NCBI RefSeq assembly: GCF_006345805.1
Contig: NC_043020.1
Coordinates: 10,602,001 to 10,666,000 of the forward strand
Source of the DNA: Octopus sinensis
Taxonomy: Eukaryota
Length of the DNA: 64,000 nucleotides
Direction: 5' to 3'
Below the pieces are notes generated by a model. The model ran no database searches, had not been told where the DNA came from, and saw only the letters and a program-made list of their open reading frames with translations. The position numbers and the translations under genes are program-made. Below, one piece after another: positions 2,068-63,384 of this stretch. Position 1 is the first letter of the stretch. Each line of letters starts with the position of its first letter.

Positions 2068-2106
<39 letters not shown>

Positions 2107-2364
2107 CTATACAATATGTTACATTACTCGGTAGTCAAGATAAAACTCTGAGTTTCAGATGCCGAAGTGGAAATCCACAACACCATCTCTTCGGTTATCT
2201 GGCTATTTCTGTGATATGCGTCCATATTAGATTCTTTTGTTTGTGAGAGTCCTCAACCGATGTTAGGCGATAATCCCAAAAAGGTCGTATTAGTTCTTAG
2301 TTGAGAATAACGTCGTCCGGGAGGTGATTTATTGATAAAACGGTAAGATAACAAAAGAATAGCC

Positions 2365-2427
2365 AGATAACCGAAGAGATGGTGTTGTGGATTTCCACTT
2401 CGGCATCTGAAACTCAGAGTTTTATCT
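2365..2427 (+). ncRNA. Hammerhead-like motif, U4C variant. Inverted copy at about 2137-2200(-), relative at about 50605-50668(-)
   Basis: AGAUAA-CCGAAGA-GAUG...CAUC-u-GAAA-CUCaGAG-UU-UUAUCU. Confidence 0.55.
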
Positions 2428-2697
2428 TGACTACCGAGTAATGTAACATATTGTATAGATAAATTTCCTCTATTTACATAATATTGAGGTCTCTTTCTTT
2501 CTTTTGTTATCTTACCGTTTTATCAATATATATATATATATATATACTGGAGTAAACACATAAATGTGAAACAAGGTGGAAAAAAGAGTACTCAAATACC
2601 AGTGGTAGAGTAATATGCTTTATTTAAAGCAGCAGAAAATTCAATGTGAAACTCAGAGTAACAGGTTTTGTTGAATTTTCTGCTGCTTTAAATAAAG

Positions 2698-2738
<41 letters not shown>

Positions 2739-2740
<2 letters not shown>

Positions 2741-3012
2741 AGGCACAATAGCCCAGTGGTTAGGGCAGCGGACTCGCGGCCGTAGGATCGCGGTTTCGAT
2801 TCCCAGGCCGGGCATTGTGAGTGTTTATTGAGTGAAAACACCTAAAAGCTCCCTGATGCCCCGGCAGGGGGTGGTGATCCCTGCTGTACTCTTTCACACT
2901 CTTTCTTCTATTGGCCTGCTCGCTTAGCCAGCGGGGTGGCGTCATTCGAAGGCTAAAACATTGTGACCAGCGATGTGTAACAACATCTGATGGTCTGGTC
3001 GGTCACGTGATC
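2739..3012 (+). mobile_element. tRNA-derived SINE family C. Related pieces on - at about 31065-31420 and 47205-47350
   Basis: tRNA-like head gcccagtggttagggcagcggactcgcg...ggtttcgattccc. Confidence 0.8.
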
Positions 3013-3603
3013 ACTATAAGATGTCTGTCATAGATAAAAGCTTATGATCCATAGGTGTATTCAGGCATGTTATTATATATTGATTATATGATAGCTTTCT
3101 TTGCATTTAACCAGATGCCTCTGAGCAGGTATCACCATGACAACTTTCTCTCTCGTGGTCAATGCAATAATCCCATGCAACACATGCTCATTCCAGCAGA
3201 AGTGAGCTTAGAATGTTCAATCGTAAAGAGCAAGCACAGCAGTGTCCAAGGCAAATCTGTGCCAAGCAGCTTGACACTTGCATGCTTTAGCTTTGTTACT
3301 ATGGCAACAGTCCAGATACTTATTCTTTTCCATGCTAGGCGCAAGGCCCAACATTTTGGGGGGGGGGGGAGGAGGGGCAGTCAATTAGATCGACCCCCAG
3401 TATGCAACTGGTACTTAATTTATCGACCCCCGAAAGGATGAAAGGCAAAGTTGACCTCGGTGGGATTTGAACTCAGAATGTAAAGATACGGAATACTGCT
3501 GAGCATTTCACCCTGTGTGCTCCAGATACTTATTGATCAGACTTTGTATCTTGTATGTATGTATGTATATGTATGTGTGTGTATGTATGTATGTATGTAA
3601 GTA

Positions 3604-3634
<31 letters not shown>

Positions 3635-3649
3635 CATCATCATCATCAT

Positions 3650-4577: not shown

Positions 4578-7500
4578 GTGTGTGTGTGTATGTATGTATG
4601 TATGTATTAATAGAAATGGTAAGATTACAAAAGAATGAAAGAGACCTCACTATTATGTAAATAGAGGAATTTATCTGTAAATGTAATATGTGACAATTTT
4701 TCGATATATGATCTGGACATCGGAAAAAAATGCTATTTTCATGGCATTTTTTTCCGATGCCCTTTGTATTGCCAACCACTCCATGAGTGTAGTGGTTGCT
4801 TTTTACGTGCCAGTTGGGTGGTACTGGCATTGGCCACGACGGTGATTTTACTGGACTCAATAGGTCCTCTCAAGCACAGGACATTGCCCGATGATTGAAT
4901 GGAACTCTTAAATGGGCCAGTTATGCAACACTGGCATAGGGCCATAGCCAAATCCCCAAAACTGCTCTGCTGGGGACAGCTAGAACTTTGAGATTGGTAC
5001 TTGATTGTTGAATGTCTCCCACGATAATTAACAACCAAGTATCAAAGCTTATAATGTGTGAAAAGAGACCCTGTGAGATCTCTGACAGCAGGCTGCTGTC
5101 CCCTCTCATAGAATCTATCAGAACAAATAAGACCAAACGTTCTGAGAAGTAAAGCAATTATAATAAAATACAATACTGTAGTCTTGTATCTGCCACTTTA
5201 TTCATTGGTTTCATACCAGGAGTTAGGATAATCTTAACAATCATCAGATTATCAAAAAATGTCTGAAAGGACATTTTCAAACTCTCTGTGGCAAAGAACT
5301 CAAGCCATAGCATTCCATCCAACCCTTTTCTGATGATTGCTGGGATTACCTCCACTACTGGTATGAAACTGATAGATAAAGTGGCTGATATGAGAATATG
5401 ATATTGTAGTTAATTAATAGTGATTTACCTACTCTATTAACCAACGTATAATACCTGTTTTTTTTCCAACTCTTGAATTTTTAACATAGCTCTGTATGTG
5501 TGTGTAGTGGGTGTTTGTATGTCTTTGTCTTGACTTTACATGATGGTTGTAAACAAGCATCACCATCATATAAGCAGTGTTGTTCATTTCAAGTCTTCCA
5601 TGGAAATACATCTGGCCATGGGGAAATATTACCTTGAGGTGAAGGTTGGCGACATCCAACTGTAGAAAATATGTCTCAGCAAATTCTGTCTGACCCATGC
5701 AAGCTTGGAGAAGTGAACATTAAAATGATAATTATGATGATTATGATGATGCTTATTTATATTTAAAAATATGTCTTATAATTTCTTTACTACAGCATCG
5801 GTTCCTGGACCCCAGGGGAAATTGTACAAAATCCTACCTCGTGCTGGTATTGGAAGGTAAGAGTTTTGTGTAGATGCTTGTGTGTGTGTGTTTGTGTGTA
5901 TAAGTGTGTGGTTGTTCACATTTTCACTTCTCCAAAACCCACATGCTACAAATGGTAATGTCATTTCTCTCAACAACAACTTGTCTGCTGGCTTTAAGCC
6001 CTCTAAAATGTTTGAAATCAGAGACACCTTACTTGAGAAACAAGCAAGAGTTAATAACTGGAAGGGCACCTGACTGTAAAACACTACTTTAACAATATAT
6101 TCCTCTAACCCATGCTACCATGGAAAAGTGGACGTAAATGACAAAGCTTTGGTTAATCCAAAGCCATGATAGAAGGTGCTGGAGAGTGGTATTGAATCTG
6201 AGATCCCATGGTTGTAAAATAAACTTTTTAACCATTCAGCCATGCTTCCAGTAAAACAATAGGTGCAAGATCATTGAGGGAAGTTCCCTGTGAGAGATCC
6301 AGGATCCTTGTGAGTGTCCAAGAACATTTAGCTCTTTGTTCAAGTCAATGATAAGTAATGACCCTTAAAGGTTCCTTTGGGTCTTAAGAGAAAGGGTAAA
6401 GAAACCCTTTGGTCATAAATGACCATGGAATTGCAACTAGAATGTTCCCCTCCAAGGCACAAGTCTAGATAAAGTTGTTTATGGGAGACCAGCACTCACC
6501 CATGCATACCAGCCTCTCCTCTCCACGTCACTGATGTTATCCAAGGCAAAGGCAAAGGCCGATACAGCTTGGCACCAGTGATGTTGCGACTCATTTCTAC
6601 AGCTGAGTGAACTGGAGTGATTTGTGAGCTGCTAACAGGATACGTCTAATTTATTGGTCTAATTGTTTAACTCCTTCAAAACCAATCTGCTCAAGGTTTC
6701 TGGTTATGTGAGACATTCTTCCTACTTTAAAGTGATCTAAATTAAAATTTTCTGTCAAAATTACATGTTAATTACATGTTAATTTGTTCAAAACATCAAC
6801 TCAGTAGTTATTTTACTAAAATCTTCATTAGGCAAAGGAGTGGCTGTGTGGTAAGTAGCTTGCTAACCAACCACATGGTTCAGTCCCACTGCGTGGCATC
6901 TTGGGCAAGTGTCTTCTACTATAGCCTCGGGCCGACCAAAGCCTTGTGAGTGGATTTGGTAGACGGAAACTGAAAGAAGCCTGTTGTATATATATATATG
7001 TATGTGTGTGTATATGTTTGTGTGTCTGTGTTTGACCCCCTAGCATTGCTTGACAACCGATGCTGGTGTGTTTACATCCCCGTAACTTAGCGGTTCGGCA
7101 AAAGAGAACCGATAGAATAAGTACTGGGCTTACAAAAGAATAAGTCCCGGGGTCGAATCGCTTGACTAAAGGCGGTGCTCCTGCATGGCTGCAGTCAAAT
7201 GACTGAAACAAGTAAAAGAGTAAAGAGTATTTTCAAAATACATTGAATTAATCCTTTAACATTTAAACAGGCCATGTCCAGCCAAATTATTCTGCATGTT
7301 TTATGTTCAAACTGGCCAGATATGACCTCTCCTATCTATCCTTTAATGTCATTCTAAAAATAACAATCACATCTTCATCGTCATCGTTTAACATCTGCTT
7401 TCCATGCTAGCATGGGTTGGATGATTTGACTGAGGTCTGGCAAACCAGATGGCTGCCAGATCTGGCCAAATTTCTACAGCTGGATGCCCTTCCTAACGCC

Positions 7501-8744
7501 AACCACTCTGAGAGTGTAGGGGATGCTTTTACGTGCCACCGGCACGTGGGCCAGTCAGGCGGTACTGGCAATGGCCAAACTCAAATGGTGTTTTTTACGT
7601 GCCACCTGCACAGGAGCCAGTCCAGCGGCACTGGCAACAACCTCACTCGAATGTTTTTTTTCATGTGCCACTGGCACAAATGCCAGTAAGGTGACATCAT
7701 CATCATTTAAAGTCCATTTTTCCATGCTGGCATGGGTTGGACAGTTTGACTGAGGTCTGGAGAGCCAGCGGCTGCACTTGTCTCTAACCAAGAGTGTAGT
7801 GGGTGCTTTTTATGTGCCACCAGCACAGGAGCCAGTCAGGCAGGCCTGACATCAATCATGTTCTGATAGTGCATTTTATGTGTCACCAGCATGGGAGCCA
7901 GTCAGTGGGTACTGGCATCAGTCACATTTGGATGGTGCTTTCTACATGCCACCAGCACAGGAGCTAATCAGGGGTTACTAGCATTGGCCACGTTCAGATA
8001 GTGTTTTTTATGTGCCACTAACACAGGAGCCAGTCAGGCAGACCTTAGCATCAACCACATTCAGATGGTACTCTTTTTAGGCGGCGAGGTGGCAGAAACG
8101 TTAGCGCGCCGGACAAAATGTTTAGCAATATTTCGTCTGCCGTTACATTCTGAGTTCAAATTCCGCCGAGGTCGACTTTGCCTTTCATCCTTTCAGGGGC
8201 GATAAATTAAGTACCAGTCATGCACTGGAGTCAATGTATTCGACTTAATACCTATGTCTGTCCTTGTTTGTCTCTTCTGTGTTTAGCCCCTTGTGGGTAG
8301 TAAAGAAATAGGTACTTTTTACATGCTACCGGCACAGGAGCCAATCAGGGGTCACTGACCACAACTACAGTATTGATTTTACTTGACTCAATAGGTCTTC
8401 TCAAGCATATCGTATTGCCCAATGCATCAGGGGTACTCTTAACTGAGCTGGACATGCATGGCAGCAATCTCACTTTAGTTGCCGGGTCTTCAATTACAGC
8501 ATATCGCCAAAGCATATCTCCTGTCATTGCCTCGTTTAACATCCGCTTTCCATGCTAGCATGGGTTGGACGATTTGACTGAGGACTGACAAACCAGATGG
8601 CTGCACCAGGCACCAATCTGATCTGACAGAGTTTCTACAGGTGGATGCCCTTCCTAGTGCCAACCACTCCGAGAGTGTAGTGGGTGCTTTTACGTGCCAC
8701 TGGCACGAGGGCCAGTCATGCAGTACTGGCAATGGCCAAGCTCA

Positions 8745-17829: not shown

Positions 17830-18283
17830 GAAATATGTTACAAAAAGAAAATATAAAATACATGTGGAAATGTAAGGGTAAAATATGAAAAATCAACGAA
17901 AATGCACATTGCAAATAAAAAAAGGCTTTTTATGACAGGTAACAACAAATATATACATTTAGATTGACTGAGGTAGTAATAAAAGTCATAAAAGTCATTA
18001 TTATGAGATGATTATAAGATGATAATAAAGTAAGAAAACAAAGCGAACCATGGTTTACACAAAATCTAATCATCGCTTGAAAAACACCGGCTGAATAGCT
18101 TGGCGTAAACCATGGTTCGCTTTGTTTTCTTACTTTATTATCTTATAATCATCTCATAATAATGACTTTTATGACTCTTATTACTACCTCAGTCAATTTA
18201 AATGTATATATTTGTCGTTACCTGTCATAAATAGCCTTTTTTTATTTGCAATGTGCATTTTCCTTGATTTTTCATATATATAT

Positions 18284-18321
<38 letters not shown>

Positions 18322-18785
18322 GTAGAAATATGTTACAAAAAGAAAATATAAAATACATGTGGAAATGTAAGGGTAAAATATGAAAATCAACGAAAATGCA
18401 CATTGCAAATAAAAAAAGGCTTTTTATGACAGGTAACAACAAATATATACATTTAGATTGACTGAGGTAGTAATAAAAGTCATAAAAGTCATTATTATGA
18501 GATGATTATAAGATGATAATAAAGTAAGAAAACAAAGCGAACCATGGTTTACACAAAATCTAATCATCGCTTGAAAAACACCGGCTGAATAGCTTGGCGT
18601 AAACCATGGTTCGCTTTGTTTTCTTACTTTATTATCTTATAATCATCTCATAATAATGACTTTTATGACTCTTATTACTACCTCAGTCAATTTAAATGTA
18701 TATATTTGTCGTTACCTGTCATAAATAGCCTTTTTTTATTTGCAATGTGCATTTTCCTTGATTTTTCATATATATATATATATAT

Positions 18786-20778
18786 ATGAAAAAACAAGTC
18801 AAAAATAGAAAATGCTAAAATAATTTTATAGTGAATCTTTCAGTACCGGTTTCGGTCATTTTGAGACCTTTTCAACTGTAACGATTAAATAATTAAATTT
18901 AGAAAAATTAGAAGAAAAGTTTTTTTAAAGGAATATTTCTATAGTAGTGTTCAGATATGTGGCATTCTGCCTTTCTCTGACTCCCTTGTTTGCACTTGTG
19001 TGTTGGAGGTCGTTGTGAGTTCTTGGTAGGGTAGGAGAAGAAGAAGGCTGAGGAGGAGAGGGGGTGGGGAAATCTGGGAGTGCCCTGATGGTCGTATTTT
19101 GAATGGTCAGTGGCGGCCAGCAGTCGCAGTTCAATTCAGGAAAATATTTCTATTGACTGGCTTGTTTATGGAATTTGCGTAGGCGTTATACTAAAAAACA
19201 TTAGTGACAAGGTTAAGGGGTAGAAGGTGGAGAAGTAGAAGAAGAAGATGACGATGTTGATGATGATGATGATGAAGAAGGAGAAGATGATGATGATGAT
19301 GATGGTGGTGATGATGATAATGATGATGATGAAGAAGAAGAGGAAGAAGAAGAAAAAACAGAGAAGGGAGAATATGAATGGGTGAAAGTATAGCTGTGAT
19401 GGGGCTGATTAGTAATGGATTCTATGGAATGTAATATTTGTGTGTGTATATATTTCTTTTATTCTAAAGTTGAGGTATATTAATTGTTTGTCGTAGACCC
19501 GTTAAGAAGTGGCCTGTATTTTGTAATAAAGAGATTTTCTTTACTTATTCGTTGTCTCGAGGTTGTATCGTCCCTAAATTGGTAGAGGGGGAAAATCCTG
19601 AAGTTTGGTGTTTTTTTGTTGGCGCAAGTACCTATGTGTTGGCTAAAAGCTATTTTTCTGTTTTGGGGAATTTTTATCTGGGATCTGTGCAGGGCCATTC
19701 GTTTACGCAAACCATTTTTTGTTTGGCCTATGTACTGCTCTTGACACCCGGAGCAGGTTAGTGAGTATATTAGGTTCTCCGAAGCACATGTGAAGTTGCT
19801 TTTCACTGTAAACCGTTGTCCCTGGTTGAAGGAGAACTCTGATCCCTCAATTAGATAGTCGCATATCCCGCAATTGGGTCTCCCACAATTTTTTACTGTC
19901 GGCTTCTGTGTTGAAGAGTGAATTCGGGCTTGTGTTAGGAGACTTTTCATGGATCTAGGCTGTCTCTTGCTTTTTATGATCGTGTGTGTTTGGAGGATTG
20001 TGTTCATTCTGTGGTCTTTTTTTAGGAGGGGTATGTTGTGGAGGATGGTGCCGAAGGCTTCGTTATTGAGAGGGTTGTGTGTGGAGATGTATGGTAAGGC
20101 TTTTGGTTGTAAGTTTTTCTTTGATTTGGGATGTCTCAGTTCCTTGATGTTAAGTTGAAGGGCACGTTGAATGCACTTGTCAATAAGTGAAGGTGGATAG
20201 TTCCTGGTGATAAGGGTATCATCATCTTCTCCTTCTCCTTCTTCTTCTTCTTCATCATCATCATCATCATCAACATCGTCATCTTCTTCTTCTACTTCTC
20301 CACCTTCTACCCCTTAACCTTGTCACTAATGTTTTTTAGTATAACGCCTACGCAAATTCCATAAACAAGCCAGTCAATAGAAATATTTTCCTGAATTGAA
20401 CTGCGACTGCTGGCCGCCACTGACCATTCAAAATACGACCATCAGGGCACTCCCAGATTTCCCCACCCCCTCTCCTCCTCAGCCTTCTTCTTCTCCTACC
20501 CTACCAAGAACTCACAACGACCTCCAACACACAAGTGCAAACAAGGGAGTCAGAGAAAGGCAGAATGCCACTTATATCTGAACACTACTATAGAAATATT
20601 CCTTTAAAAAAACTTTTCTTCTAATTTTTCTAAATTTAATTATTTAATCGTTACAGTTGAAAAGGTCTCAAAATGACCGAAACCGGTACTGAAAGATTCA
20701 CTATAAAATTATTTTAGCATTTTCTATTTTTGACTTGTTTTTTCATATATATCAACTCGTGTGTTCCTTTCCACCCTT

Positions 20779-20780
<2 letters not shown>
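18786..20780 (-). mobile_element. 5'-truncated Penelope-like element (Neptune-type) with inverted pLTR
   Basis: Open frame 20220-19480: RNYP thumb, CGRPNCGIC linker, GIY-YIG (NLIYSLTC..C...YIGQT...R..H...E...GLN-like end). 18786-19290 and 20220-20745 are near-perfect inverted copies. Flanked by (TA)n. Confidence 0.92.
20653..20692 (+). ncRNA. Minimal hammerhead motif, U3:A8 variant, in PLE pLTR. Copies at 18841-18879(-), 46201-46238(+), 45874-45911(-, stem II mismatch)
   Basis: CAG-UUGAAAA-GGUC(ucaaaau)GACC-GAAA-CCGG-UA-CUG. Confidence 0.7.
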
Positions 20781-20811
<31 letters not shown>

Positions 20812-26660: not shown

Positions 26661-27623
26661 GAGTGGTTGGCGTTAGGAAGGGCATCCAGCTGTAGAAACA
26701 CTGCCAGATCTGACTGGCCTGGTGCAGCCTTCGGGCTCCCCAGACCCCAGTTGAACCGTCTAACCCATGCTAGCATGGAAAGCGGACGTTAAATGATGAT
26801 GATGATGATGATGATGTGTGTGTGTGCATGTATGTTTGTGTGTCTGTGTTTGTCACCCCAACATCGCTTGACAACCGATGCTGGTGTGTTTATGTCCCCG
26901 TCACTTAGCGGTTCGGCAAAAGAGACCGATATAATAAGTACTGGGCTTACAAAGAATAAGTCCCGGGGTTGAGTTTCTCGACTAAAGGTGGTGCTCCAGC
27001 ATGTCCGCAGTCAACTGACTGAAACAAGTAAAAGAGTATAGTTGTAGAAAGGAAAATAGCGGGAACAAGAATCTCTGAACAAATAACAATAATAATAATT
27101 TATTTTGCCGAAATAAACATTTCATCTCTGGACATCAGTAAACTGGTCGCCTTGCGGGTGGAAGCAGCAGGCTTAGTAGTCAGACACAAAATATGAAGGC
27201 TTTCACAGACTCGCAACGTCGCTCACCATCAAAATTCCAGCTCCACATAGCTGGTCTCAGTTGCATCCGTCTTGGTTGGCGGCAGGAGCAAAGAGAGAGA
27301 ATAGCGGTCAAGCCTAGCTGCTGCTGATGACTGCGCATGCGCATAAGGGACTTCCAGCAGGCCTTCTGGAAGACTAACCCTTGCGCATGCATGGATGAAA
27401 ATCCCAAAATGGCATCTGGAACCAGGCGTCACTACAGATTATTTAGAAGTATTCTTTTAAACTTGTTTTTCCACATTATTTACATTATTTACATTTGACA
27501 GATATTTGTCCTCATCTTGTTTGTTGTTAACACAATGTTTCAGCCGATATACCCTCCAGCCTTCATCAGGTGTCTTGGGGAAATTTCGAACCTGGGTTCT
27601 CATTCCTAAGGTATTTTTCGATG

Positions 27624-29090: not shown

Positions 29091-30175
29091 TTCATCATCA
29101 TCATCATCGTTTAACGTCTGTTTTCCATGCTAGCATGGGTTGGATGGCTCGACCGGGGTCTGGGAAGCCAGGAGGCTGCACCAGGCTCCAGTCTGATCTG
29201 GCAGTATTTCTACAGCTGGATGCCCTTCCTAACACCAACCACTCCATGAGTGTAGTGGGTGCTTTTTACATGCCACTGACAAGGGGCCAGGGGAGGCTGG
29301 AAACGGCCATGATCGGTTGGTGCTTTTTATGTGCCACCAGCACAGAAGCCAGTGAAGGTGGCGCTGGCATCGACCACGTACAGATGGTGCTTTTTACATG
29401 CCACTGGCACAGGTGCCAGGGGAGGCTGATATTGTTATTCATTTTAGTTTTCATATTTTCCAGTAGTGTTCTCTGTCTATTATTTTAACTTCATCCCACA
29501 GGGGAAGGTGTTCTCCGTTTTTCCATACATGATCAACTATACCCGTTTCTTTTCAACAGCTACTCATGTCACAGCTTTACGACGTTCCTCTACCCTTATT
29601 TTTGAGTGGGTGGCATGTTTTGCCTTTGTATAACCTACCACAACTGCAGTACATGCAGTCTTTGGTCATATTCTCTTCAATTGATGGTTTTACTTGATTG
29701 AAGGAGATATTTGCAAAGTATTGTATTACTCTTGAATACTGTCCTGATGTCATATGGATCACATATACTCTCTTACTTGTTTCAGTCATTTGACTGTGGC
29801 CATGCTGGAGCACCGCCTTTAGTCGAGCAAATCGACCCCAGGACTTATTCTTTGTAAGCCCCAGTACTTATTCTATCGGTCTCTTTTGCCAAACCGCTAA
29901 GTTACGGTGACGTAAACACGCCAGCATCGGTTGTCAAGTGATGTTGGGGGGACAAACACAAACACACAAACATATACACATACATATATATATATATATA
30001 CATATATATACGACGGGCTTCTTTCAGTTTCCGTCTGCCAAATCCACTCACAAGGCTTTGGTCGGCCCGAGGCTATAGTAGAAGACACTTGCCCAAGGTG
30101 CCACACAGTGGGACTGAACCCGGAACCATGTAGTTGGTAAACAAGCTACTTACCACACATCCACTCCTACGCCAT

Positions 30176-33100
30176 ATCTTTTTGTATCTTTTTGGAGAGG
30201 CCCTTCACATAGGGTACGTAGACTGTGGCCAGTTTATGGGCTTCATCTTCTCTCATCTTCCTAATTAGAGTGGATAGTATGTTTTTTGGGTAGCTGTTGC
30301 TTAATAGATAGTTACATAGCTTGATCATTTCTTCATGGTGTGTATCAGGATCGCTGCTTATATTCTTTGCTCAATGTTTCAGGCACTGAGCAATCCCCCT
30401 CTTTACACTGTATGAATTGTGGGAATTGAAATTGAGGTATCGTCCAGTAAAGGTTGGCTTGTGGTATAAAAAAAAAAAAGACTCCGCCGGTTACGACGAC
30501 GAGGGTCCCAGCTGATACGATCAATGGAACAGCTTACTCGTGAAATTAACGTGCAAATGGCTGAGCATTCCTCAGACACGTGTACCCTTAACATAGTTCT
30601 CGGGGATAATCAGCGTGACACAGAGAGTGACAAGGCTGACCCTTTGAAATACAAGTACAACTCATTTTTGCCAGCTGAGTGGACTGGAGCAACGTGAAAT
30701 AAAGTGTCTTGCTCAAGGACACAACGCGTCGCTGGGAATCGAACTCACAACCTTACGATCATGAGCCGGATGCCCTAACCACTAAGCCACGCGCCCTCAC
30801 GGCTTGTGGTATATGGATGTCCTGGACCCATGCTTAGTACATATTATGAATACATCCAGGAATGCTAGCTGATTGTCTTTTTTCTTTTCCATTGTGAACT
30901 ATATAGATGGCTTTATTGAATTCCCATGATCTAGCAGTACTAGGACATCTTCCTGGTGGGGCTAGTATATAAAGGTGTCGTCAACATATTGAAGCCATAA
31001 GGTTGGCTTTAGTGGTGTTGATTCTAAAGGCAAATTCTCAAAGTATTCCATCTATGGTGGAAGTACTCCGTCGGTTACGACGATGAGAGTTCCGGTTGAT
31101 CCGAATCAACGGAACAGCCAGCTCGTGAAATTAACGTGTAAGTGGCTGAGCACTCCACAGGCACTTGTACCCTTAACGTAGTTCTCGGGGATATTCAGCG
31201 TGACACAGAGAGTGACAAGGCCGGCCCTTTGAAATACAGGTACAACAGAAACAGGAAGTAAGAGTGAGAGAAAGTTGTAGTGAAAGAGTACAGCAGGGAT
31301 CACCACCATCCCCTGCCGGAGCCTCGTGGAGCTTTAGGTGTTTTCGCTCAATAAACACTCACAACGCCCAGTCTGGGAATCGAAACCGCGATCCTATAAC
31401 CACTGGGCCATTGCGCCTCCATTCCACCTATATATTGGCTATTGTTGTTGATAATGGCAAGCCCATAGCTAAACCTTCATCATGTCGATATATATCAGTA
31501 TCTACTCTGAAGTAGGTAGTTCGACACAGGTCAACATTTCCATCAAGTTTCTTATTGGTATACTAGTGCGATCTTTTAGATAGGAGTCCGTCACTAGTCT
31601 TACTTGAATCACTGATAGTGTTTCACCAATTTTTCAGAGTAGTCAGACTTGTTCCTCACCACAGTAGCATTTCCCTTGTCCGCTGGAAGTATCATGATGG
31701 AGTTGTCACTCTGTAGTGAAAAAAAAAAATTCAAGCGAAATCGTTGCCAGTACCTATTTCTTTACTACCCACAAGGGGGCAAACATAGAAGGGACAAACA
31801 AGGACAGACATAGGTATTAAGTTGATTACATCAACCCCAGTGCGTAACTGGTACTTAATTTATCGACCCCGAAAGGTCGAAAGGCAAAGTCGACCTCGGC
31901 GGAATTTGAACTCACAACGTAACGCAGACGAAATACCGCTACGCATTTCGCCCGGCGCGCTAACGTGTCTCGTTGCCAGTACCACCTGACTGGCCCCTGT
32001 GCCGGTGGCACGTAAAAGCACCCACTACACTCTCGGAGTGGTTGGCGTTAGGAAGGGCATCCAGCTGTAGAAACTCTGCCAGATAAAGACTGGGGTCTGG
32101 TGCAGCCAACTGGTTCGCCAGCCCTCAGTCAAATGGTTCAACCCATGCTAGCATGAAAAGCGGACATTAAACGATGATGATGATGATGATCTTTTCTTCC
32201 ATAGTAATGTTTGGTTTGGGAAGTTCTGCTTTCTCTAGTACCTATCTCACTTTCCACCTTAGTTCATCTCCCTGAACTTTTGGTATTTTCATGGCTGTCT
32301 CCTCAATAGGGGCTATTATGTCCAAGTATGGAATGCGTTTGATGTCTGTCGCAAAGTTGAGACCTTTGTTTAATACTGCTTTTCCACAGTTTTCTAGATA
32401 TCGGCTACTTACATTAATTACTACTTTCACAGGTGGGTGATGGACTTCGGTCTTCATTCTCTAACCCATGATCGTCATAAACTTCTTAACCTGGCGTGTC
32501 TTCACCTTCTCAAATTCCTTCTGGCACAACTTTTCGAGATCTTGTTGGATTCTCTTTCTATCGTCATCTCTAGTTATTCTCCCAAGTAATGAAGATAACC
32601 TGTCTCTGATTTCATTATTTAGTTGATGTTTTTTCCAACAGTTATAATGGATTCTCTCACAGACGAAGGCATGCCTTGCTCTTTCCATTATTCTTCGAGC
32701 TTTATTTGAAGCCACTGGTGTCATTACATTCAAGCCAGGGGGCATTAGCTTTGAGTCTCTACATCTATACTGAAAGGTTAGATGGTTTGAACTACGAGCT
32801 AGTTTCTGGTGGAGTTTCTCTTTATGTCTCCATTGAAGTCTGATGTCGGCTCTGTACCAATTTGATAATACTGTTCTGTATTTTAGAGATGAGAAATTCT
32901 GTACATTATTTACATTGGATGGATAGGGGTCCTCATATTCTTTGTTGTTACCACTACGTTTTGGCTGATTTACTCTCCAGCCTTCAGGGGCCTGGTGGAA
33001 TTTTGAATCCCACACCACAAAAAAAGGCATTCTTACTTATGACACATTGCTTGTAAGTAAGCAGAATACTTATATTCAGCCGAAACATTGTGGTAACAAC

Positions 33101-33185
33101 AAACAAGATGAGGACACATATCCGTCCAATGTAAATACTGTAAATAATGTATAGAATTACTCATCTCTAAAATATAGAACAGTGT
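30176..33185 (-). mobile_element. Decayed Penelope-like element (RT) interrupted by SINEs and an RTE tail
   Basis: Collinear PLE motifs: VLNKGLNFA (~32370), ILPADKGN (~31680), GLAMGLPLS (~31460), WLQYVDDTF (~30985), LAFLDV, KPTFTGRYLNF (~30440). A pLTR-like piece at 33075-33185 matches 27795-27912. Confidence 0.88.
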
Positions 33186-39309: not shown

Positions 39310-39476
39310 AGCATGTGTTTGTATATGTATGCACCTCTGTCTCCTTGTGTGTGCATATCTGTGTGTGTGTGTGTGTGTTATGCAACTATGTACCATGTTT
39401 GTATGTATGGATGTGCATCTTTTTAGATGTGTGGATCCAAAAACAAAATAATAATAATAATAATATAATAATAATA

Positions 39477-41305: not shown

Positions 41306-41351
41306 TAAAATTGATTACATATTAACATTTGTCTCTTCAATTATTTTCCAG

Positions 41352-41372
41352 ACTATGGGTACATTATTATAA
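41352..41372 (+). CDS. dachs: Probable terminal coding exon of the myosin (TMGTLL*)
   Basis: Pyrimidine tract plus ttttccAG, phase 0, TAA stop, and AATAAA at about 41466 and 41528. Too short for homology support. Confidence 0.55.
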   Translation, partial: TMGTLL

Positions 41373-42299: not shown

Positions 42300-43687
42300 G
42301 ATTATGATGATGATTATTATTATTATTATTATGTGTGTGTGTGTGTGGTAAGAAGTTTGCTTCCCAACCACATGGTTCTGGGTTCAATCCCACAGAATGG
42401 CACCTTGAGCAAATGTCTTCTACTATAGCCTTGGACAGACCAGAGCCTTGCAAGTGGATTTGGTAGGTGGAAACTGAAAGAAGCTTGTTTTTGTGTGTCT
42501 CCTTCATCATCATCATCATCGTTTAACGTCCGCCTTCCATGCTAGCACGGGTTGCACGATTTTGACTGAGGGTTGGCGAGCCAGGAGGCTGCACCAGGCT
42601 CCAATCTTGATCTGGCAGAGTTTCTACAGCTGGATGCCCTTCCTAACGCCAACCACTCCGAGAGTGTAGTGGGTGCTTTTTACGTACCACCAGCACGGGG
42701 GCCAGTCAGGCGGTACTGGCAATGACCTCACTCAAATCTTTTTACACATGCCAGTGAAGCGACGTTGGTAACGATCACGCTCGAATGGTGCCCTTGTACG
42801 TGCCATGGGTACGGAAGGCAGGTGGCTGCTCTGGCAACGATCACGCTCGGATGGTGCTCTTGGCACCCTACTAGCATATACATACATACATATATATACA
42901 TATACATAAATATATATACATATACATAAATATATATATACATATATATATACATACATACATACACATACATACATACACATACATACAGATATTATAC
43001 ATACATATATATATAACATATATATATACATACATTATACATATAATAAACATACAGATATATATACATACATATATATATACATACATATATACATATA
43101 TACATACATACATATATACATACATAGATATACATACATATATACATACGTACATAAATACATATATACATACGTATGTATGTATGTATATATATATGTA
43201 TGTCACAAAATGTGACCTTGTGTGTAACGTTGGCGATTTTTTTTCCTCCGTCTTCCCTTCTTTGGATCTTTCCTTCTATGTTTCCGACGAAGAGCTCCAC
43301 TCAAAACGTTAAACTCTCCTTCTTTCCTGAGCGTCCAATAATACTATATTTGTTCCACGTCCTCGCGTTTTCATGTTTGGATTAACTTTATATATACACA
43401 CACACACATATACATATATATACATATTACATACCATAAACATATATCCACTGAAGTATACAGATATATACGTATATACACTCACGCACATATACATAAA
43501 TATACATGTATACATATATATTGATATATTCTTACCCAAAGCCACAGTTCCATATATACAGTCTTACCTAATATATATACACAAACATATACATTTATGT
43601 CTACAATTGAAAAAATAAACTAATTATAAGTTAAATAATTATAAATACGCAACACGTTCATTAAATAAATAAACAAGAACTTACGCG

Positions 43688-45780: not shown

Positions 45781-45816
<36 letters not shown>

Positions 45817-46328
45817 TATATGAAAAAATAAGTCAAGATAGAAAATGCTAAGATAATTTTATAGTGAATCTTTCAGTACCGGTTTCGGTAATTTTGAGAC
45901 CTTTTCAACTGTAACGATTAAATAATTAAATTTAGAAAAATTAAAAGAAAAGTTTTTTTAAAGGGATATTTGTATAGTGTTCAAATATAAGTGGCATTCT
46001 GCCTTTCTCTGTCTCTCTTGTTTGCACTTGTGTGTTCGAGGTCATATATAACCACAATGACCCCGAACACACAAGTGCAAACAAGAGAGACAGAGAAAGG
46101 CAGAAAGAATGAAAATGCCACTTATATTTGAACACTATACAAATATCCCTTTAAAAAAACTTTTCTTTTAATTTTTCTAAATTTAATCATTTAATCGTTA
46201 CAGTTGAAAAGGTCTCAAAATGACCGAAACCGGTACTGAAATGTTCTTTATAAAATTATTTTAGCATTTTCTATCTAGACTTATTTTTTCATACATATCA
46301 ACTCGTGTGTTCCTTTTCACCCTTATAC

Positions 46329-46367
<39 letters not shown>

Positions 46368-46478: not shown

Positions 46479-46667
46479 TTTCAATTAATATACATTATTT
46501 AGTACAGACAACTAAACTATATCACCTCTGGTGAAGTTACAAACAACAACGTTTTATATATATATATATTCATACATACACACACACACACACATTTCAA
46601 TTAATACACATTATTTCGTACAGACAACTGAACTATATCACCTTTGTGGAAGCTACAAACAGCAAGG
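45560..46667. repeat. Five copies of a ~75-bp unit that includes the TONSL-like stop codon
   Basis: catttcaattaatatacattattttgtacagataactaaactatatcacc at about 45560, 45721, 46365, 46476 and 46592. Confidence 0.92.
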
Positions 46668-46964
46668 TCCCCCCAATGTCCACACCAAACTTGCTTTAAG
46701 CTGTTTTGGTCAACAGTGTCCAATTTTACGCAGCTGAAATGCAATTTCACCAACGGGATGGTTGCTGACAGCTTGTTACCCAAGCTGTCGAGAAAGTCTG
46801 ACGTGAGGGGGCTGGAGATTCCACAGTCTATCATAACAATCTGTTCGAGGGCACAGTCAGCATTGCTGGAAGCATTCTGTAGAAGCTGTAATAAAATAGG
46901 TTGCTCGAACTGGGGGTTGCTTGAGAGATCCAGGGTCTGTAACCGTGTGGCAAAGTATGGCAGA
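46601..46964 (-). CDS. TONSL: Terminal exon of TONSL-like LRR protein (LPYFATRLQTLDLSSNPQF...VQLSVRNNVY*)
   Basis: ttttccAG acceptor in phase 2. LxxLDLSxNP...CGI..PL...D matches the TONSL C-terminal LRRs as recalled. Confidence 0.8.
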
Positions 46965-48613: not shown

Positions 48614-49356
48614 CCCTTTAGTGTTCGCATTATTCTGCCAAAATTAATCCTTTTTTATCCACATTGTTTTGAACTATAATCATGCATTATCTTGTAGCTT
48701 TGAGATTTTGATGAGGTAGCTGTTAATTTTTAAAAGGATATTGTAGGGTTGGTCTGAGAGACCAGATCTGGCCAGTTTGAACATAGAACAGGCAGAATAC
48801 TTTTGGCCAGATATGGCCAGTTTAAATGCATTATCTTGTAGCTATGAGAATTTGATGAGGTAGCTGTTAATTTTTACAACGATATTGTAGGGTTGGTGTG
48901 AGAGACCAGATCTGGCCAGTTTGAACATAAAACAGGCAGAAAACTTCATCATCATCATTTAGCATCCGTTTAAATGATGATGATGATGATCTGGCCGGAT
49001 CTGGCCAGTTTAAATGCATTATCTTGTAGCTATGAGATTTTGATGAGGTAGCTGTTAATTTTTAAAACGACATTGTAGGGTTGGTGTGAGAGACCAGATG
49101 TGGCCAGTTTGAACATAAAACAGGCAGAAAACTTCATCATCATCATTTAGCATCCGTTTAAATGATGATGATGATGATCTGGCCGGATATGGCCAGTTTA
49201 AATGCATTATCTTGTAGCTATGAGATTTTGATGAGGCAGATGTTAATTTTTAAAACGACATTGTAGGGTTGGTGTGAGAGACCAGATGTGGCCAGTTTGA
49301 ACATAAAACAGGCAGAAAACTTTTGGCCGGATATGGCCGGCTTGAATGCTAAAGGG
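48614..49356. mobile_element. Second TTAA-flanked MITE family with ~4 internal tandem repeats. Relics at about 7255-7370 and 9660-9880
   Basis: TTAA|CCCTTTAG...CTAAAGGG|TTAA. Shares the TTAA at 48610-48613 with the preceding MITE. Confidence 0.8.
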
Positions 49357-49399
49357 TTAAATGATGAAGATCATGATAATGATAATACATATGAAGAAA

Positions 49400-49812
49400 T
49401 TGTCATTATCATCCAATGTGTATAGACATTGTTTAGTCACCTGCAAATTGACGAAACAATTGTAAACCATGGAATAAATGTAATGCTACTCTTCACTTGT
49501 ATATGAACAGACTACTGACACAATCAGAAATTCAGAAACAATTTACAGAAGATGCCAAGTATACTAATTAAAAAAAAAAAACCCCAAAAAACCTACAAAC
49601 TAAAGAAAGAATTTACAATAAAGAAGCAAGTCAATATGTGGTGACTCTCACTGCTGAACGAACGTGATTACATTGAAAAAGGAAAATAAATAAACTTTAA
49701 AAACGTTTTTAAGAAATCAATGCAAATATGAATTGCAAACCAAGAAACCTGATTCCTTGTGCCATTTGTTCAGAATGCAAAGAATACTACATTGGAGAAA
49801 CAGGAATTGGAT
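49400..49812 (+). mobile_element. Decayed PLE GIY-YIG fragment
   Basis: MNCKPRNLIPCAICSECKEYYIGETG. Confidence 0.65.
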
Positions 49813-49845
49813 TATATACAAACACACACATACACATTATATATA

Positions 49846-49949: not shown

Positions 49950-50134
49950 ATATAAATGCAAATATTTATATACAATATATATATGCACAGCCGCAGCTCC
50001 GAACTGAAACTAGAAAAAAACAAAAAAAAAAAAGAAGAAAAAGAACAATACTGAACTTTACAGAAGTTCCTACCGTTAATATATTTATATTTACTACGTG
50101 ATTTGTAGCCTGATCTTACCGTTTTTACCAATAT

Positions 50135-50194: not shown

Positions 50195-51399
50195 TATAAT
50201 ATTAATTAGAGACAAAACCACTATTTTGCAAAACAAACAAGGAAAGACTTAATCAATACATAAAATTTTAATAAAAAGTTAAAAAACTTTTGACTATTTA
50301 TTAAAATTTTATGTATTGATTAAGTCTTTCCTTGTTTGTTTTGCAAAATAGTGGTTTTGTCTCTAATTAATATTATATAATATTTTACTATAAAATTGGA
50401 TTTAATCCTAAATCTGATTTTTCCCCTGTAAATTTGGATTTATTCCCTAATATTTATTATATACATATATATATATAAACACACACATACATATATATAT
50501 TGATAAAAACGGTAAGATAACAAAAGAATGAAAGACACCTTGATATTATGTAAATAGAGGAAATTTATCTGTAAATATAATATGTGACAATTATTCAGTA
50601 GCCAAGATAAAACTCTGAGTTTCGGTAGCCGAGGTGGAAATCCACACCACCATGTCTTCGGTTATCTGGCCATCTAACCAGATGGTTAATCAGAGATGGC
50701 CAGATAACCGAAGAGATGGTGGTGTGGATTTCCACCTCGGCTACCGAATAATTGTCACATATTATTTTACAGACAGACGGACGGACGGACAGATGGATGG
50801 ATGGATGCATGTATGTATGTATATATTATAATAAATTTAATGCCCAATATATGGATATAACTAATCTGATGGTACTCAGAAAAAAAGATCAGGCTACAAA
50901 CCATATAGTAAACCAAAACAAAACAAAAAGGTGTAATGTATAGTCTCATGCAATTGGAATCCAACAAATCCAGTTGGTAGTGATCATTTCATTGCGAGTA
51001 TAGAGAATATAAAGAAGGAGAGGAAGTATAAGGTGAAAATATTTATTTCACCAATTAACATCCATAACTACACCAATTAACATCATTTTGCAGTCTTGAG
51101 CATACAAAAATGATTTATTTTACTGTATAATAACTAAATAAATAAATACAAGCAAAAAGGCTTGCTCATCAGATCGAAGAATATCATGGTTACTTTACTT
51201 TTCTTTCATCATCATTATACATGTATACAAACACAGAATTAACATTGAAAATATTGATATATGGAAAACAATAAATAGCAAAATTAAAATTAAATTACTA
51301 GAGAAGAGAGGTGGAGATTTAGCAAGATGATAAAAAGTAAACAATGGATTACAGTGGTAGAAAAAAAACCCAGTTAAGATATAGATGGAAAATCATATA

Positions 51400-56822: not shown

Positions 56823-56918
56823 TACAGCTGTTTCGATCCATCTAACATTGATCCCTCATGGGTGGGACACTTAACAACTGGTTCAGGAGTATCCGACGAT
56901 GCAGATGTATCTCTTCAG
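56823..56918 (-). ncRNA. Hammerhead-like motif with long stem II insert
   Basis: CUGAAGA-GAUaCAUCU...AGAUGgAUC-GAAA-CAGCUG-UA. Stem I is poorly paired. Confidence 0.45.
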
Positions 56919-59143: not shown

Positions 59144-59325
59144 CAGTGGTAGAAAGTTCATCAAAGAGTTACAAAAGAGCTGGTTCATTAAATATGATGA
59201 ACAACCAGATGTCCAGGATAAATCCAAGCTGACGAGTTGTGTTGGGTCCAACCATTTGAAGAGCAGGCGCACACCAGCGGATTCCAGTTTGTTGCAAGAG
59301 ACATCCACATGTTGAAGATAGCAAG
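59144..59325 (-). CDS. TONSL: TONSL-like exon (CYLQHVDVSCNKLESAGVRLLFKWLDPTQLVSLDLSWTSGCSSYLMNQLFCNSLMNFLPL)
   Basis: tttccAG/GTaagc. Two ribonuclease-inhibitor-like LRR units. Phases 1 to 0. Confidence 0.82.
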
Positions 59326-62300
59326 CTGGAAATGGGAGAAAGAGAGAGAAAGATTAAAAGAGAATATATTATATAAAATAGGTGGCGAGCTGGCAGAGTG
59401 GTTAGCACGCCGGGCGAAATGCGTAGCCATATTTCGTCTGCCGTTACGTTCTGAGTTCAAATTCCGCCGAGGTCGACTTTGCCTTTCATCCTTTCGGGGT
59501 CGATAAATTAAGTACCAGTTACGCACTGGGGTTGATGTAATCGACTTAATACCTATGTCTGTCCTTGTTTGTCTCCTCTGTGTGTAGCCCCCTGTGGGTA
59601 GTAAAGAAATAGGTATTTCATCTGCTGCTACGTTCTGAGTTCAAATTCCGCCAAGGTCGACTTTGCCTTTCATCCTTCCAGGGTCGATAAATTAAGTACC
59701 AGTTACGCACTGGGGTCGATGTAATCGAAATAATCCCTTTGTCTGTCCTTGTTTGTCCTCTCTGTGTTTAGCCCCTTGTGGGTAGTAAAGAAATATATAT
59801 TATATAAAATATTGGTGCTGGAGTGACTATTGGTGCAGGCATGGCTGTGTGGTAATAAGTTTGCTTTACAACCACATGGTCCTGGGTTTAACAGATTTGT
59901 ATGTACGTAGAGAGTAGAAAAGGTGTTTTCATCAGCTGACATTATGTAATAGGTATGTACTATGAGTTTGATTTACCACTAAAGCTCTGTCTTGAAATGC
60001 ATCTGCAAAAATGTGATGCCAAGACTGCCTATTGAAGGCGGCAATAACTTTATTACCATTATTATTATTTTTGTCCCTTTTTTGTTATAATTAATTTTTG
60101 TCAGCCCTTGTGGCCAATAAAAGAATTAATTATTATTATTATTATTATTAGTATTACTATTATTGAGTGAGAGAGCAGTACATGTCATCAAAGTGACACT
60201 GGGTTAAAATATACGAAGCCCAGTATACCCATCATGACTACCTGTCTTATAAGGGTGCACCAGGCACATTCATCACAACCATGTGTGCAACATAGTAAAC
60301 TCATATCAAGACAAACAGCGCATGACCTTGCAGGTGGGGCCCAGTTAGGATTTTTTTCAGGTCAAGTAGCCCATCCCACTCAAATGGTCCTTGAATAAGG
60401 GTTGTTTAAATATGTTGAATGAAACACCCATGTTTCCAGAGGTGAATTATTTAAACTCCAAAGAATTCCTCTCAACACATGGCTATGATGCTCCCCCACT
60501 ACTTCGGCTCCTGATCAGAGACGCACATATTTAATTCTTTATTGCCCACAAGGGGTTACACATAGAGGGGACAAACAAGGACAGATAAACAGATTAAGTT
60601 GATTACATCGACCCCGTGCGTAACTGGTACTTATTTAATCGACCCCAAAAGGATGAAAGGTAAAGTTAGCCTCAGCGGAATTTGAACTCAGAACATAGCG
60701 GCAGACGAAATACCTATTTCTTTATTACCCACAAGGGGCTAAACATAGAGTGGACAAACATGGACAGACTAAGGGATTAAGTCGATTACATCGACCCCAG
60801 TGCGTAACTGGTACTTAATTTATTGACTCTGAAAGGATGAAAGGCAAAGTCGACCTCAGTGGAATTTGAACTCAGAACGTAACAGCAGACGAAATACCGT
60901 TAAGCATTTTGCCAGGCGTGCTTAATATTCTGCTAGCTTGCTCCCTTTGGAAGTTTATGTATGTATGCATCTTTACATTTGCAATTTAATATATTAATTA
61001 AAATATGAGCTGCACATAAAGGACATGCTCAACTGGTTACGGTCAAACAACTGACAAGCAAATCTGTGGTACTGAGTCATCGGCCGACCAAAGCCATGTC
61101 AGTGGATTTGATTGTTGGAAACAGAAAGGAGTCTATCCTATATCTATGTATTTACGTGTGAGTATTTGTGCTTGTGTTTGGTCCCCCTCCCCCATCACTT
61201 AAAAACTGATGTTGGTGTGTTTACGTCCCTGTAACTAAGTGGTTTGGCAGAAGATATTGATAGAATAAGCACCTGGCTTACAAAGAATAAGTCCAGGGGG
61301 CGATTTCTTGAACTAAAAGGCAGTACTGCAACATGGCCACACTAAAATAACTGAAACAAGTAACAGAGTAAAAGAGTAATATATATATATATATATATAC
61401 ATATACATGTGTATATATATATATGGGTGTGTGCGTGTATACATATATATGAGTGTAAATATATATAGATACACATATATGTGTGTGTGTGTGTGTGTGT
61501 GTGAAGAAATAATTGAGATTCAGTTGAATTAGGTACTTAAGTTGAAGTACTAAGTCAACCCAGTATTATCTGCACAGCTTGAAGTAAGGTGAATAAAATC
61601 AAAATAAGCAACAGGATATCAAGTAGTAACGCAGTACGACCTTTTCAAGCAACTCCATTTAATTGAACAATGCAATCACTACATCAATTTAAGTGCAGTG
61701 CTATCATCAGCTGCACAAATAAATAGAATTTTAACCAGTTGAACACATTAATATAATTTTTCCCACTTACAAGAATGGCATGAAACCCACTGGGGTCATA
61801 GTCTGTAAAGGATTGAGGTACATTTTTAATTTATTTGTCTTTTTATCAACTACTAAATCTAAGACTAGAAGAATGTGTCTGTTTAGAATGAAGGGCAAGG
61901 GTGAGTTGACAGCTCCTGGCTAGGTATGGTCATAAATATTGTCATATGTATCCCTTTTCCTCAGGGAGGGAAGAAGACATTAGGAGTAGTAAATTGGATA
62001 TGGAGTAAATGTCTATAAAAGGAGGCTGGGTAGGGGAAGGCTCTAAATCATAATGTTAATTACCAGTTAAAGGGGCAAGACACTAATAAAACCTATGATG
62101 TTAATACAGAGGAAATTTTATCTTGGGGTACTACGGGTGATTGTTTATAAACAATATTGTTATCATAAGGGGGATCAGCCATCTGAATGTGGCTAGGGTC
62201 AGGGCGGGGTGGTGGGGGTGTTACTGATGCATTTAGCCCCAGGCGAACATCAACGTCACCAGAAGAGCTGACACCATCTCGGTGTCCTTGCCAGCCTGCA

Positions 62301-62335
62301 AAGGGAGATCAGCCTCCCCGAAGATACGGATACCA

Positions 62336-62378
62336 CATACAGACCGGTTTCGAGGTTATTGCCTCTTGTCAACGTATG
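62336..62378 (-). ncRNA. Minimal type I hammerhead ribozyme motif, second tandem copy
   Basis: Same as the 62694 copy, except the 3' strand of stem I is UGUAUG (G-U wobble). Confidence 0.78.
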
Positions 62379-62693
62379 GTAAGCACCGCTCTTCGTTGAG
62401 GGACTTCCTCTACAGGCTGGATGTATAGATTTTCACAGTAACCACAGTCACTGGCGTAGAAAATCCGTTCGAAAACAATAATAAATCTCTGAGCGAGATA
62501 TGAACAGTAACTGCTCTATAACATAAGGGGGATCAGCCATCTGAATGTGGCTAGGGTCAGGGCAGGGTGGAGGGCGTGTTACTGATGCATTTAGCCCCAG
62601 GCGAACATCAACGTCACCAGAAGAGCTGACACCATCTCGGTGTCCTTGCCAGCCTGCAAAGGGAGATCAGCCTCCCCGAAGATACGGATACTA

Positions 62694-62736
62694 CATACGG
62701 ACCGGTTTCGAGGTTATTGCCTCTTGTCAACGTATG
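62694..62736 (-). ncRNA. Minimal type I hammerhead ribozyme motif, U3:A8 variant
   Basis: CAUACG-UUGACAA-GAGG(caauaa)CCUC-GAAA-CCGG-UC-CGUAUG. Perfect 6-bp stem I, 4-bp stem II and palindromic stem III. Confidence 0.8.
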
Positions 62737-63384
62737 GTAAGCACCGCTCTTCATGTTGTATAAAAATAAAATTTGAGATGATCAAAAATGATATCATAAC
62801 CAAAATAGGTAAAATGTATGTATATATTAATTATCAACATTCAGTGCCGGTGACAAGTAAGCGAACCATCCGATCATGGCCGTTGCCAGCGCCGCCCCGA
62901 CTAGCCTGCATGCCGGTGGCACGTAAAAAGCACCATCCGTTCGTGGCCATTGCCAGCCTTGCCTGGCCCCCGTGCCGGTGGCACGTAAAAAGCACCATCC
63001 GTCCGTGGCTGTTTGCCAGCTCCGTCTGGCACCTGTGCGGGTGGCACGTAAAAAGTACCCACTACACTCATGGAGTGGTTGGCGTTAGGAAGGGCATCCA
63101 GCTGTAGAAACACTGCCAGATCAGACTGGAGCCTGGTGCAGCCTTCTGGCTTCCCAGGTCCCCGGTCGAACCGTCCAACCCATGCTAGCATGGAAAGCGG
63201 ACGCTAAATGATGATGATGATGATTCGAAAGGAAATATTACATAGAACCAGTTTAATATTCATTCATGTCCCTTAATTATTTATCAGGTGGTTTCTATAA
63301 AGACTGCTCAGGTCATTTACTTATGGAATACTGGAAAGATAAACATGCTATATATATATTAATTATAAGCCAAGAATCAGAAAA

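Follow-up and report, generated by a model that had tools for sequence, protein, structure and literature searches.

Type I hammerhead motifs in several unrelated repeat families of a 64-kb octopus genomic window

Hammerhead motifs in Penelope-like elements (PLEs) were surveyed by Cervera and De la Pena 2014, who reported thousands of motifs per genome, divided among several families and mostly single, together with opposite-strand pairs 100-700 bp apart and ~1,300 motifs with a U3-A8 pair in S. mansoni (PMC4209133). Penelope elements are abundant in octopus, and 30 recently active families are given for O. vulgaris (PMC13282606 Table 1), with ribozymes unmentioned in the main text (PMC13282606; PMC8967140). 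The present analysis concerns a stretch of 64,000 nt of the Octopus sinensis genome (NC_043020.1, positions 10,602,001 to 10,666,000), here called the window and numbered from its first letter, in which candidate hammerheads occur in six repeat families, A to F. The reading that best explains the data, to which we assign a probability of about 0.85, is that these are type I hammerhead motifs from several unrelated repeat families, that two of the families (B and C) are PLEs and the others likely non-coding derivatives of PLEs, and that intact copies would be cut only as dimers.

Motif searches and chance level

The window, which has a GC content of 37% and is rich in microsatellites and short interspersed repeats, was selected for its hammerhead density, and all motif counts given here apply to these 64 kb. 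In a comparison with dinucleotide-shuffled controls of the kind that the original prediction had proposed for the genome, a strict hammerhead descriptor gave 6 matches (four in family B and two in family F) and none in 30 of 30 local dinucleotide shuffles, and a relaxed descriptor gave 8 matches against a shuffle mean of 0.73; one of these 8, at 44567(+), is AT-rich and was treated as a chance match. A score model that tolerates decay, with hand-set weights that were fixed after the candidates were known and that favor them for this reason, returned 7 matches of at least 25 bits (0.001 expected from 689 local dinucleotide shuffles), 10 of at least 20 bits (0.13 expected), and 15 of at least 16 bits (0.92 expected). 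The shuffled windows contained 0.36 matches of at least 18 bits per window, and 29 bits was attained by 1 of the 689. The motifs of F (34-37 bits), B (28-31.5 bits), C1 (26 bits), and A (24.5 bits, but 18.5 for A3) are far above chance; lower scores were obtained for D (21.8 bits, ~0.05 expected per window), E (18.5 bits, ~0.3 expected per window), and copy C2 (17.3 bits). Families A, B, C, and F can be regarded as solid and D as probable but decayed, whereas E is indistinguishable from chance, since shuffles reach its score about once in three windows. Three further candidates, 61710(-) with 18.3 bits, 5330(+) with 13.4 bits, and 1596(+) with 16.5 bits, score within the chance range. The 150 Rfam matches listed, out of a total of 175, include no hammerhead and are only microsatellite and hairpin matches to microRNA models.

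BLASTN at E ≤ 1e-3 gave no match between any two of the six families, in keeping with the unrelated families of the original prediction. All of the cores that it named are present at or within ~60 nt of the positions given; for several motifs on the minus strand, the position quoted was the lower end. With the copies that it did not list, there are about ten separate insertions. The core Y3-Y4-G5-A6-N7-R8-A9, followed by G12-A13-A14-A15.1 and U16.1-H17, is in register in A1-A3, B1-B4, C1, E, F1, and F2, and the register is broken in C2 (at A6), C3, D (at G12), and A4. The 3-8 Watson-Crick pair is C-G in A, C, D, and E and U-A in B and F, and stems I and II pair in A, B, C1, D, and F. In D, G12 reads A, and in E and C2 stem I is not formed (−2.6 and 0.0 bits, respectively).

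Families B and C and their relationship to Penelope-like elements

Family B is represented by the following features.

18780..20783, minus strand: B element, a 5'-truncated Neptune-type PLE with (TA)n flanks
19480..20214, minus strand: 3' end of the B open reading frame (ORF), open, with a CxxxxCxxC linker and a GIY-YIG endonuclease (PF01541, E 9e-5)
18841..18878, minus strand: B1, core UUGAAAA (U3-A8), position 3 at 18875, stem II of 4 bp, palindrome ACCGGU
20654..20691, plus strand: B2, core UUGAAAA, position 3 at 20657, in the inverted pseudo-long terminal repeat (pLTR)
45802..46330, unstranded: B3/B4 pair, ORF-less inverted B pLTRs with a one-sided tail, immediately 3' of the stop codon of the tonsoku-like gene (TONSL)
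45874-45911, minus strand: B3, core UUGAAAA, position 3 at 45908, one stem II pair broken
46201-46238, plus strand: B4, core UUGAAAA, position 3 at 46204

The 3' pLTR of the B element (18780-19312) and its inverted copy (20218-20752) are 99% identical, and a tail of ~30 nt is present on one side only (20753-20783). The ORF has 15 longer homologs with Pfam marks for reverse transcriptase (RT) or GIY-YIG, with which it is 36-57% identical, the RT family being marked in 12, and the cysteines of its linker, CGRPNCGIC (C110, C115, and C118), are invariant in the 16 rows of the alignment. The CxxxxCxxC linker is a mark of Neptune and Nematis elements (PMC8557442), and the linker together with the C-terminal GIY-YIG domain indicates that B is of Neptune type, although the copy in the window is without RT. 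These sequence comparisons place family B among the PLEs, at the end of a Neptune-type ORF: B1 is sense to the ORF and lies 605 nt past its stop, with a predicted cut at 18844|18843. Beside the left end of the B element are duplicated hairpin-forming repeats (17883-18628), and 18700-18787 is an exact repeat of 18206-18293.

Neptune relatives are encoded by 30 metagenome loci, of which 16 extend 150 nt or more past the ORF end. A sense hammerhead of at least 22 bits is present 93-285 nt downstream of the ORF end in 13 of the 16 (about nine independent families), and all 13 have C3-G8 and U4, most of them with ACCGGU. Because the relatives carry C3-G8, the UUGAAAA core of B is a double, compensatory change that keeps the 3-8 pair. 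In an alignment of 12 rows (B2, F2, and 10 relatives), from which C1 and D, being misaligned, and the near-duplicates L014(+), L016, L020, and L023 were left out, 94% of cells are paired and two-sided changes are seen in 8 of 10 pairs; the 3-8 pair is C-G in 10 rows and U-A in 2, none of 500 shuffles was as high, and slid controls gave 25-47%. As a control, sequence-only matches to the U3-A8 core in viral contigs had both stems in 1 of 38 cases, as against 6 of 6 in the window. The relatives vary in stem II: a U.U mismatch replaces the core-adjacent G10.1-C11.1 pair in L001 2086, L002 1593, L003 3050, and L010 3132, and the stem has only 2 bp in L005 and L008 and is almost absent from L007. 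The low-scoring candidates at 61710(-) and 5330(+) have the core CUGAUGA and, like several of these relatives, carry an extra U on each side of stem II.

Family C comprises four copies that align with one another and a decayed ORF.

27530..27573, minus strand: C1, minimal, core CUGAUGA with an inserted A, position 3 at 27569, stem II of 5 bp, 26 bits
27783..27916, plus strand: C2, core CUGUUGA, position 3 at 27784, 5'-truncated at the core
32952-32990, minus strand: C3, damaged, core at 32987, absent from the original prediction
33071-33183, plus strand: fourth copy, an inverted 3' half (motif part 33071-33095), absent from the original prediction
29450..33036, minus strand: decayed PLE ORF, interrupted by short interspersed elements, its start overlapping C3

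The hammerhead of this family is minimal with a canonical core, and the CG of the C1 palindrome has decayed to CA. A profile of the Neptune relatives matches the RT region of the ORF at 31000-30761 (E 3.8e-11) and 30469-30224 (E 4.3e-8), with a weaker match at 31731-31621 (E 0.0016), and the endonuclease end is without the linker cysteines. No PLE-related Pfam match was found for three fragments of the ORF, and none of 172 candidates was homologous to its N-terminal part; the assignment to PLEs is based on tblastn and the relatives' profile. Its layout is one that we take to be Poseidon-like. On these grounds, family C can be placed among the PLEs, the motif standing at the start of a decayed, Poseidon-like ORF.

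Families A and F and the weaker candidates D and E

Family A is a short element with a C at position 4 of the core (C4) and a very high copy number.

2365..2427, plus strand: A1, core CCGAAGA (C4), position 3 at 2371, 24.5 bits, tail to about 2531
2104..2207, minus strand: A2, inverted arm of the A1 insertion, complete motif, core at 2194, ending in (TA)n, not in the original prediction
50487..50673, minus strand: A3, core CCGAAGA, position 3 at 50661, tail present, stem II in a local variant form, within a TONSL intron in sense orientation
50691..50773, plus strand: A4, inverted arm that retains the core (50708) but has lost its 3' half, from GAAA to stem I, not in the original prediction
4586..4706, minus strand: A tail only, no hammerhead, not in the original prediction

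A1 has the type I architecture, with GAUG/CAUC in stem II, a 1-nt bulge before GAAA, the near-palindrome ACUCAGAGU, and a predicted cut at 2421|2422. C4 is present in all four window copies that have a core, which come from two insertions that are 88% identical. In three DNA runs, 5,700, 8,296, and 5,091 contigs match the segment 50487-50690, and a fourth run, which by guess is RNA, has 279; the summed contig depth is not a copy number, and neither that run nor the guessed-RNA sources of B constitute proof of transcription. The contig matches nevertheless suggest that family A has thousands of copies. In the contigs, CAUC is found on the 3' side of stem II in >99% of depth, followed by one C or U and then GAAA. 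GAUG/CAUC is also retained in a second subfamily, in which it encloses a different inner hairpin. Because the contig comparison gave no variant calls in the core zone, even for the known change at 50654, it was not used to judge conservation of C4. C4 forms part of a CpG, and since the common decay of this dinucleotide would turn the base back to U4, C4 is likely to be the family's own state. A head-to-tail joint of ~188 nt occurs in all three DNA runs, and opposite-strand joints also occur. The inverted arms, the one-sided tail, and the (TA)n flanks suggest PLE machinery. A decayed Neptune-like GIY-YIG end is present at 49512-49838(+), and behind it a stretch, 50103-50132(+), ends with the last ~14 nt of the A tail, its first 16 bases recurring inverted near 50885-50900; from this similarity, the element may be a parent or relative of family A.

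Family F and the adjoining host gene have the following features.

62161..62752, minus strand: F tandem, 1.65 units of 358 nt, non-coding, 49% GC
62736-62694, minus strand: F2, core UUGACAA (U3-A8), position 3 at 62730
62378-62336, minus strand: F1, core UUGACAA (U3-A8), position 3 at 62372
59326-59143, 48224-48147, and 46975-46604, minus strand: last three coding exons of TONSL

In F1 and F2, stem I of 6 bp is extended to ~20 bp, stem II has 4 bp, and the palindrome is ACCGGU, giving a predicted monomer of 62699-62342. The two motifs are 358 nt apart, the units are identical at 228 of 234 nt, and the longest stop-free run is 72 codons, with no ORF. F thus consists of non-coding tandem units, each with a complete type I hammerhead, and is retrozyme-like. 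The monomer folds better than all of 100 shuffles (z = −3.1), and the unconstrained lowest-energy fold of 62318-62756(-) is a double hammerhead, at −149.7 kcal/mol as against −138.8 kcal/mol for two monomers (10.9 lower), with an inter-copy stem III pair probability of 0.91. F is the one locus at which both partners stand in cis on one strand, sense to a likely TONSL intron, and it is therefore the copy most likely to cut. A telomere-associated (Athena-like) interpretation of F, suggested by a C-rich stretch near 62195-62225, was set aside because there are only two or three degenerate units at an interstitial site.

The TONSL assignment is based on 46604-46945(-), the 114 encoded residues of which match the tonsoku-like protein recorded for Octopus sinensis with 100% identity. 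Since no earlier exon was found within the 64-kb window, the stretch above 59326 is likely to be an intron, and the F tandem is likely intronic. Like E and A3, it has the same orientation as the pre-mRNA. The segment 45572-46620 carries several duplicates of the gene's final codons in a tandem of ~110-120 nt, among which the B3/B4 inverted pair is inserted; read-through of the stop would give a transcript with a ~220-bp hairpin immediately downstream.

The two weaker candidates are as follows.

43280..43314, plus strand: D, core CCGACGA (C4) with an inserted A, position 3 at 43284
56823..56918, minus strand: E, core CUGAAGA, position 3 at 56918, long stem II, perfect palindrome ACAGCUGU

BLASTN found no second copy of D within the window, and D is probably a single decayed minimal hammerhead. 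The window also contains tandem arrays at 39440-41409, 21285-21644, and 48660-49367 (units of ~220, 30, and 188 nt, respectively), none of which gave a hammerhead match.

Dimeric cleavage, alternative explanations, and comparison with known systems

In the proposed mechanism, the motif would sit in a pLTR, as it does in B and C. Stem III is a short palindrome that cannot fold within one molecule; instead, two copies would pair through the palindrome and exchange stem I strands, producing two active sites. Cofolding gave inter-copy stems I and III for A1, B2, and F2. A tandem transcript of a PLE or retrozyme would be cut to unit-length RNA, as can be surmised from PMC4209133 and PMC7229834. Copies integrated by the PLE RT and endonuclease are expected to be for the most part 5'-truncated, to bear an inverted arm, and to lie in (TA)n tracts; this would account for the dense single and opposite-strand motifs in the window. 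The motifs of inverted pairs are on opposite strands and for this reason could not dimerize in cis, and most copies in the window, including lone ones, are likely to be inert, with F as the exception. The U3-A8 combination preserves the 3-8 base pair, whereas C4 is likely to slow cleavage.

It should be recognized that several observations weigh against this explanation. The cofolds of C1, D, and E give no double hammerhead, and the lowest-energy monomer folds of A, C, and D give no clean hammerhead. E and D may be chance matches or dead copies, and no PLE ORF is in register with A, D, E, or F in the window. The contigs matching family A showed no point at which many molecules start or stop, a feature that contigs cannot display. 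The rows of the 12-row alignment were chosen by a score that rewards pairing, so that the independent part of the covariation evidence is the position and strand of the motifs. Minimal PLE hammerheads cleave weakly even as dimers (PMC4209133), and catalytic mutants of an Anolis PLE left insertion in vitro unaffected (PMC11167929).

These last results also bear on the view that the motifs descend from true hammerheads but that the variant-core families, above all A and D with C4, no longer cleave, the fold being a signal for the PLE protein or a passive feature. No reads ended at the cut site in the Anolis work (PMC11167929), and U4C, a known viroid variant, considerably lowers activity in vitro but is compatible with infectivity (PMC3088659). 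In A1 the core can pair with CUUCGG within stem II, and all four window A copies begin at stem I, upstream of the cut site, the tail-only copy likewise beginning elsewhere than at that site. However, G12-A15, U16, H17, and an 11-bp bulged stem I are held in register across A copies that are 88% identical, B and F have retained the 3-8 pair through a double change, and F folds directly to a double hammerhead. Loss of cleavage in the variant families is, on balance, rather unlikely. It is very improbable that AT-rich, palindrome-rich repeats gave rise to the motifs by chance: E, C2, 61710, and 1596 fall within the range of the shuffles, one of which reached 29 bits, but the excess of matches of at least 25 bits and the position and covariation of the motif in independent PLE relatives refute this view for B, C1, F, and A.

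The density of motifs of at least 20 bits, 10 in 64 kb or ~160 per Mb, is far above that of the ~3,300 minimal motifs reported genome-wide for S. mansoni, the genome of which is about 0.4 Gb, but this value comes from a window chosen for its hammerheads and is not transferable to the whole genome. The window could be a local hot spot of PLE debris in a genome no richer in hammerhead families than those of other invertebrates, a view that falls somewhat short of even odds. It also holds PLE fragments with no recognizable hammerhead, at 35366-34979(-) (RT region), 22328-22522(+) (linker region), and 49512-49838, and several families per genome are the norm, with 4 in Schistosoma, 6 in coelacanth, and 8 in Xenopus (PMC4209133 supplement). 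On the other side are the 5,091-8,296 contigs matching 204 nt of family A in the 3 DNA runs, the presence of B sequence in 19 sequencing runs under three organism labels, and the active Penelope families of O. vulgaris. The very large pool of ribozymes suggested by the original prediction is supported for family A only. Its description of them as PLE-borne agrees with the evidence for B (GIY-YIG ORF, inverted pLTRs, and one-sided tail) and C (position at the 5' end of a PLE ORF, now decayed) and is a matter of inference for A, D, E, and F, and the term minimal does not suit F, with its canonical type I architecture in a retrozyme-like tandem. It was correct that CUGANGA is absent from 4 of the 6 families, which counts relying on that core would miss; however, published searches already employ a U3-A8 descriptor (PMC4209133) and a CYGANGA core (PMC13481778).

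That a genome can hold many such families, that some cores have U3-A8, and that motifs occur as pairs on opposite strands is already in print; what is new is the host, an octopus, together with the C4 family and the tandem in a likely intron. No report of octopus hammerheads was among those listed by literature searches, although Lunse et al. 2016, said to describe variant PLE hammerheads that cleave as dimers, may, with its supplement, cover octopus or C4 variants. The present results extend the known picture to cephalopods and provide two ready test cases, the C4 family and the intronic double hammerhead, which are the parts most worth experiment. The high-copy C4 family and the young U3-A8 Neptune family beside its C3-G8 relatives are natural variants for examining selection on catalysis, a relevant point in view of the weak cleavage of PLE hammerheads and their dispensability for insertion in vitro (PMC11167929). 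F is a natural cis double hammerhead in what is likely a host transcript, and should the modeled structure cut, ribozymes carried by repeats would influence how octopus pre-mRNA is processed. The boldest extension, that the octopus complement is among the densest in animals (of the order of 100 per Mb), that a family of thousands of copies self-cleaves with C4, and that the U3-A8 tandem, as an active cis double hammerhead within the intron of TONSL, a DNA repair gene, cleaves the pre-mRNA and releases a 358-nt circular RNA, is speculative and unlikely to hold in full.

The metazoan PLE hammerheads (PMC4209133) resemble those of the window in type I topology, a palindromic or absent stem III, and mostly single, truncated copies; they also include a base inserted after A9, as in C and D here, and U3-A8 in Saccoglossus (Fig. 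S3), and the layout of B is that of Fig. S4A. In contrast, among the rows of Fig. S3 that were compared there is no cephalopod and no C4 core, and family A differs in its C4, the bulge before GAAA, the long inner hairpin of stem II, and a 7-nt near-palindrome. A C at position 4 is likewise found in the U4C viroid variant (cited in PMC3088659) and in the CYGANGA cores of a deep-sea virome hammerhead survey (PMC13481778), but here it is found in a high-copy repeat family of an animal, in each of the four copies within the window. In Anolis Poseidon, the ORF begins inside the hammerhead (PMC11167929), as with C3. The Neptune clade is characterized by a linker zinc finger, a (TA)n bias, inverted 5'-truncated copies, and a tail of 30-40 bp (PMC8557442); B shares the linker and the C-terminal GIY-YIG, its inverted arm and one-sided tail match the clade, and the ACCGGU palindrome is common to B and the relatives L001-L023. 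It differs from the latter in having U3-A8 rather than C3-G8 and a hammerhead 605 nt past the stop, as opposed to 93-285 nt past the matched ORF end.

The closest counterparts of F are the non-LTR retrozymes of animals, with units of 300-400 nt in mussel and of 331 and 353 nt in axolotl (PMC7229834; bioRxiv 10.64898/2026.07.22.740005), which the 2026 preprint derives from PLE pLTRs. F resembles them in its non-coding 358-nt tandem, the type I hammerhead with 6-bp and 4-bp stems in each unit, and the stable monomer fold, but differs in U3-A8, in a GC content of 49% (as against a reported value of under 45%), and in having only 1.65 units. The conserved type I hammerheads in introns of amniotes (RECK and CTCL/C10orf118; PMC6155905) are, like F, sense in a host intron and have a retroelement-like architecture; F, in contrast, is a tandem repeat insertion that would need a dimer and was read in one genome, and the likeness does not imply domestication.

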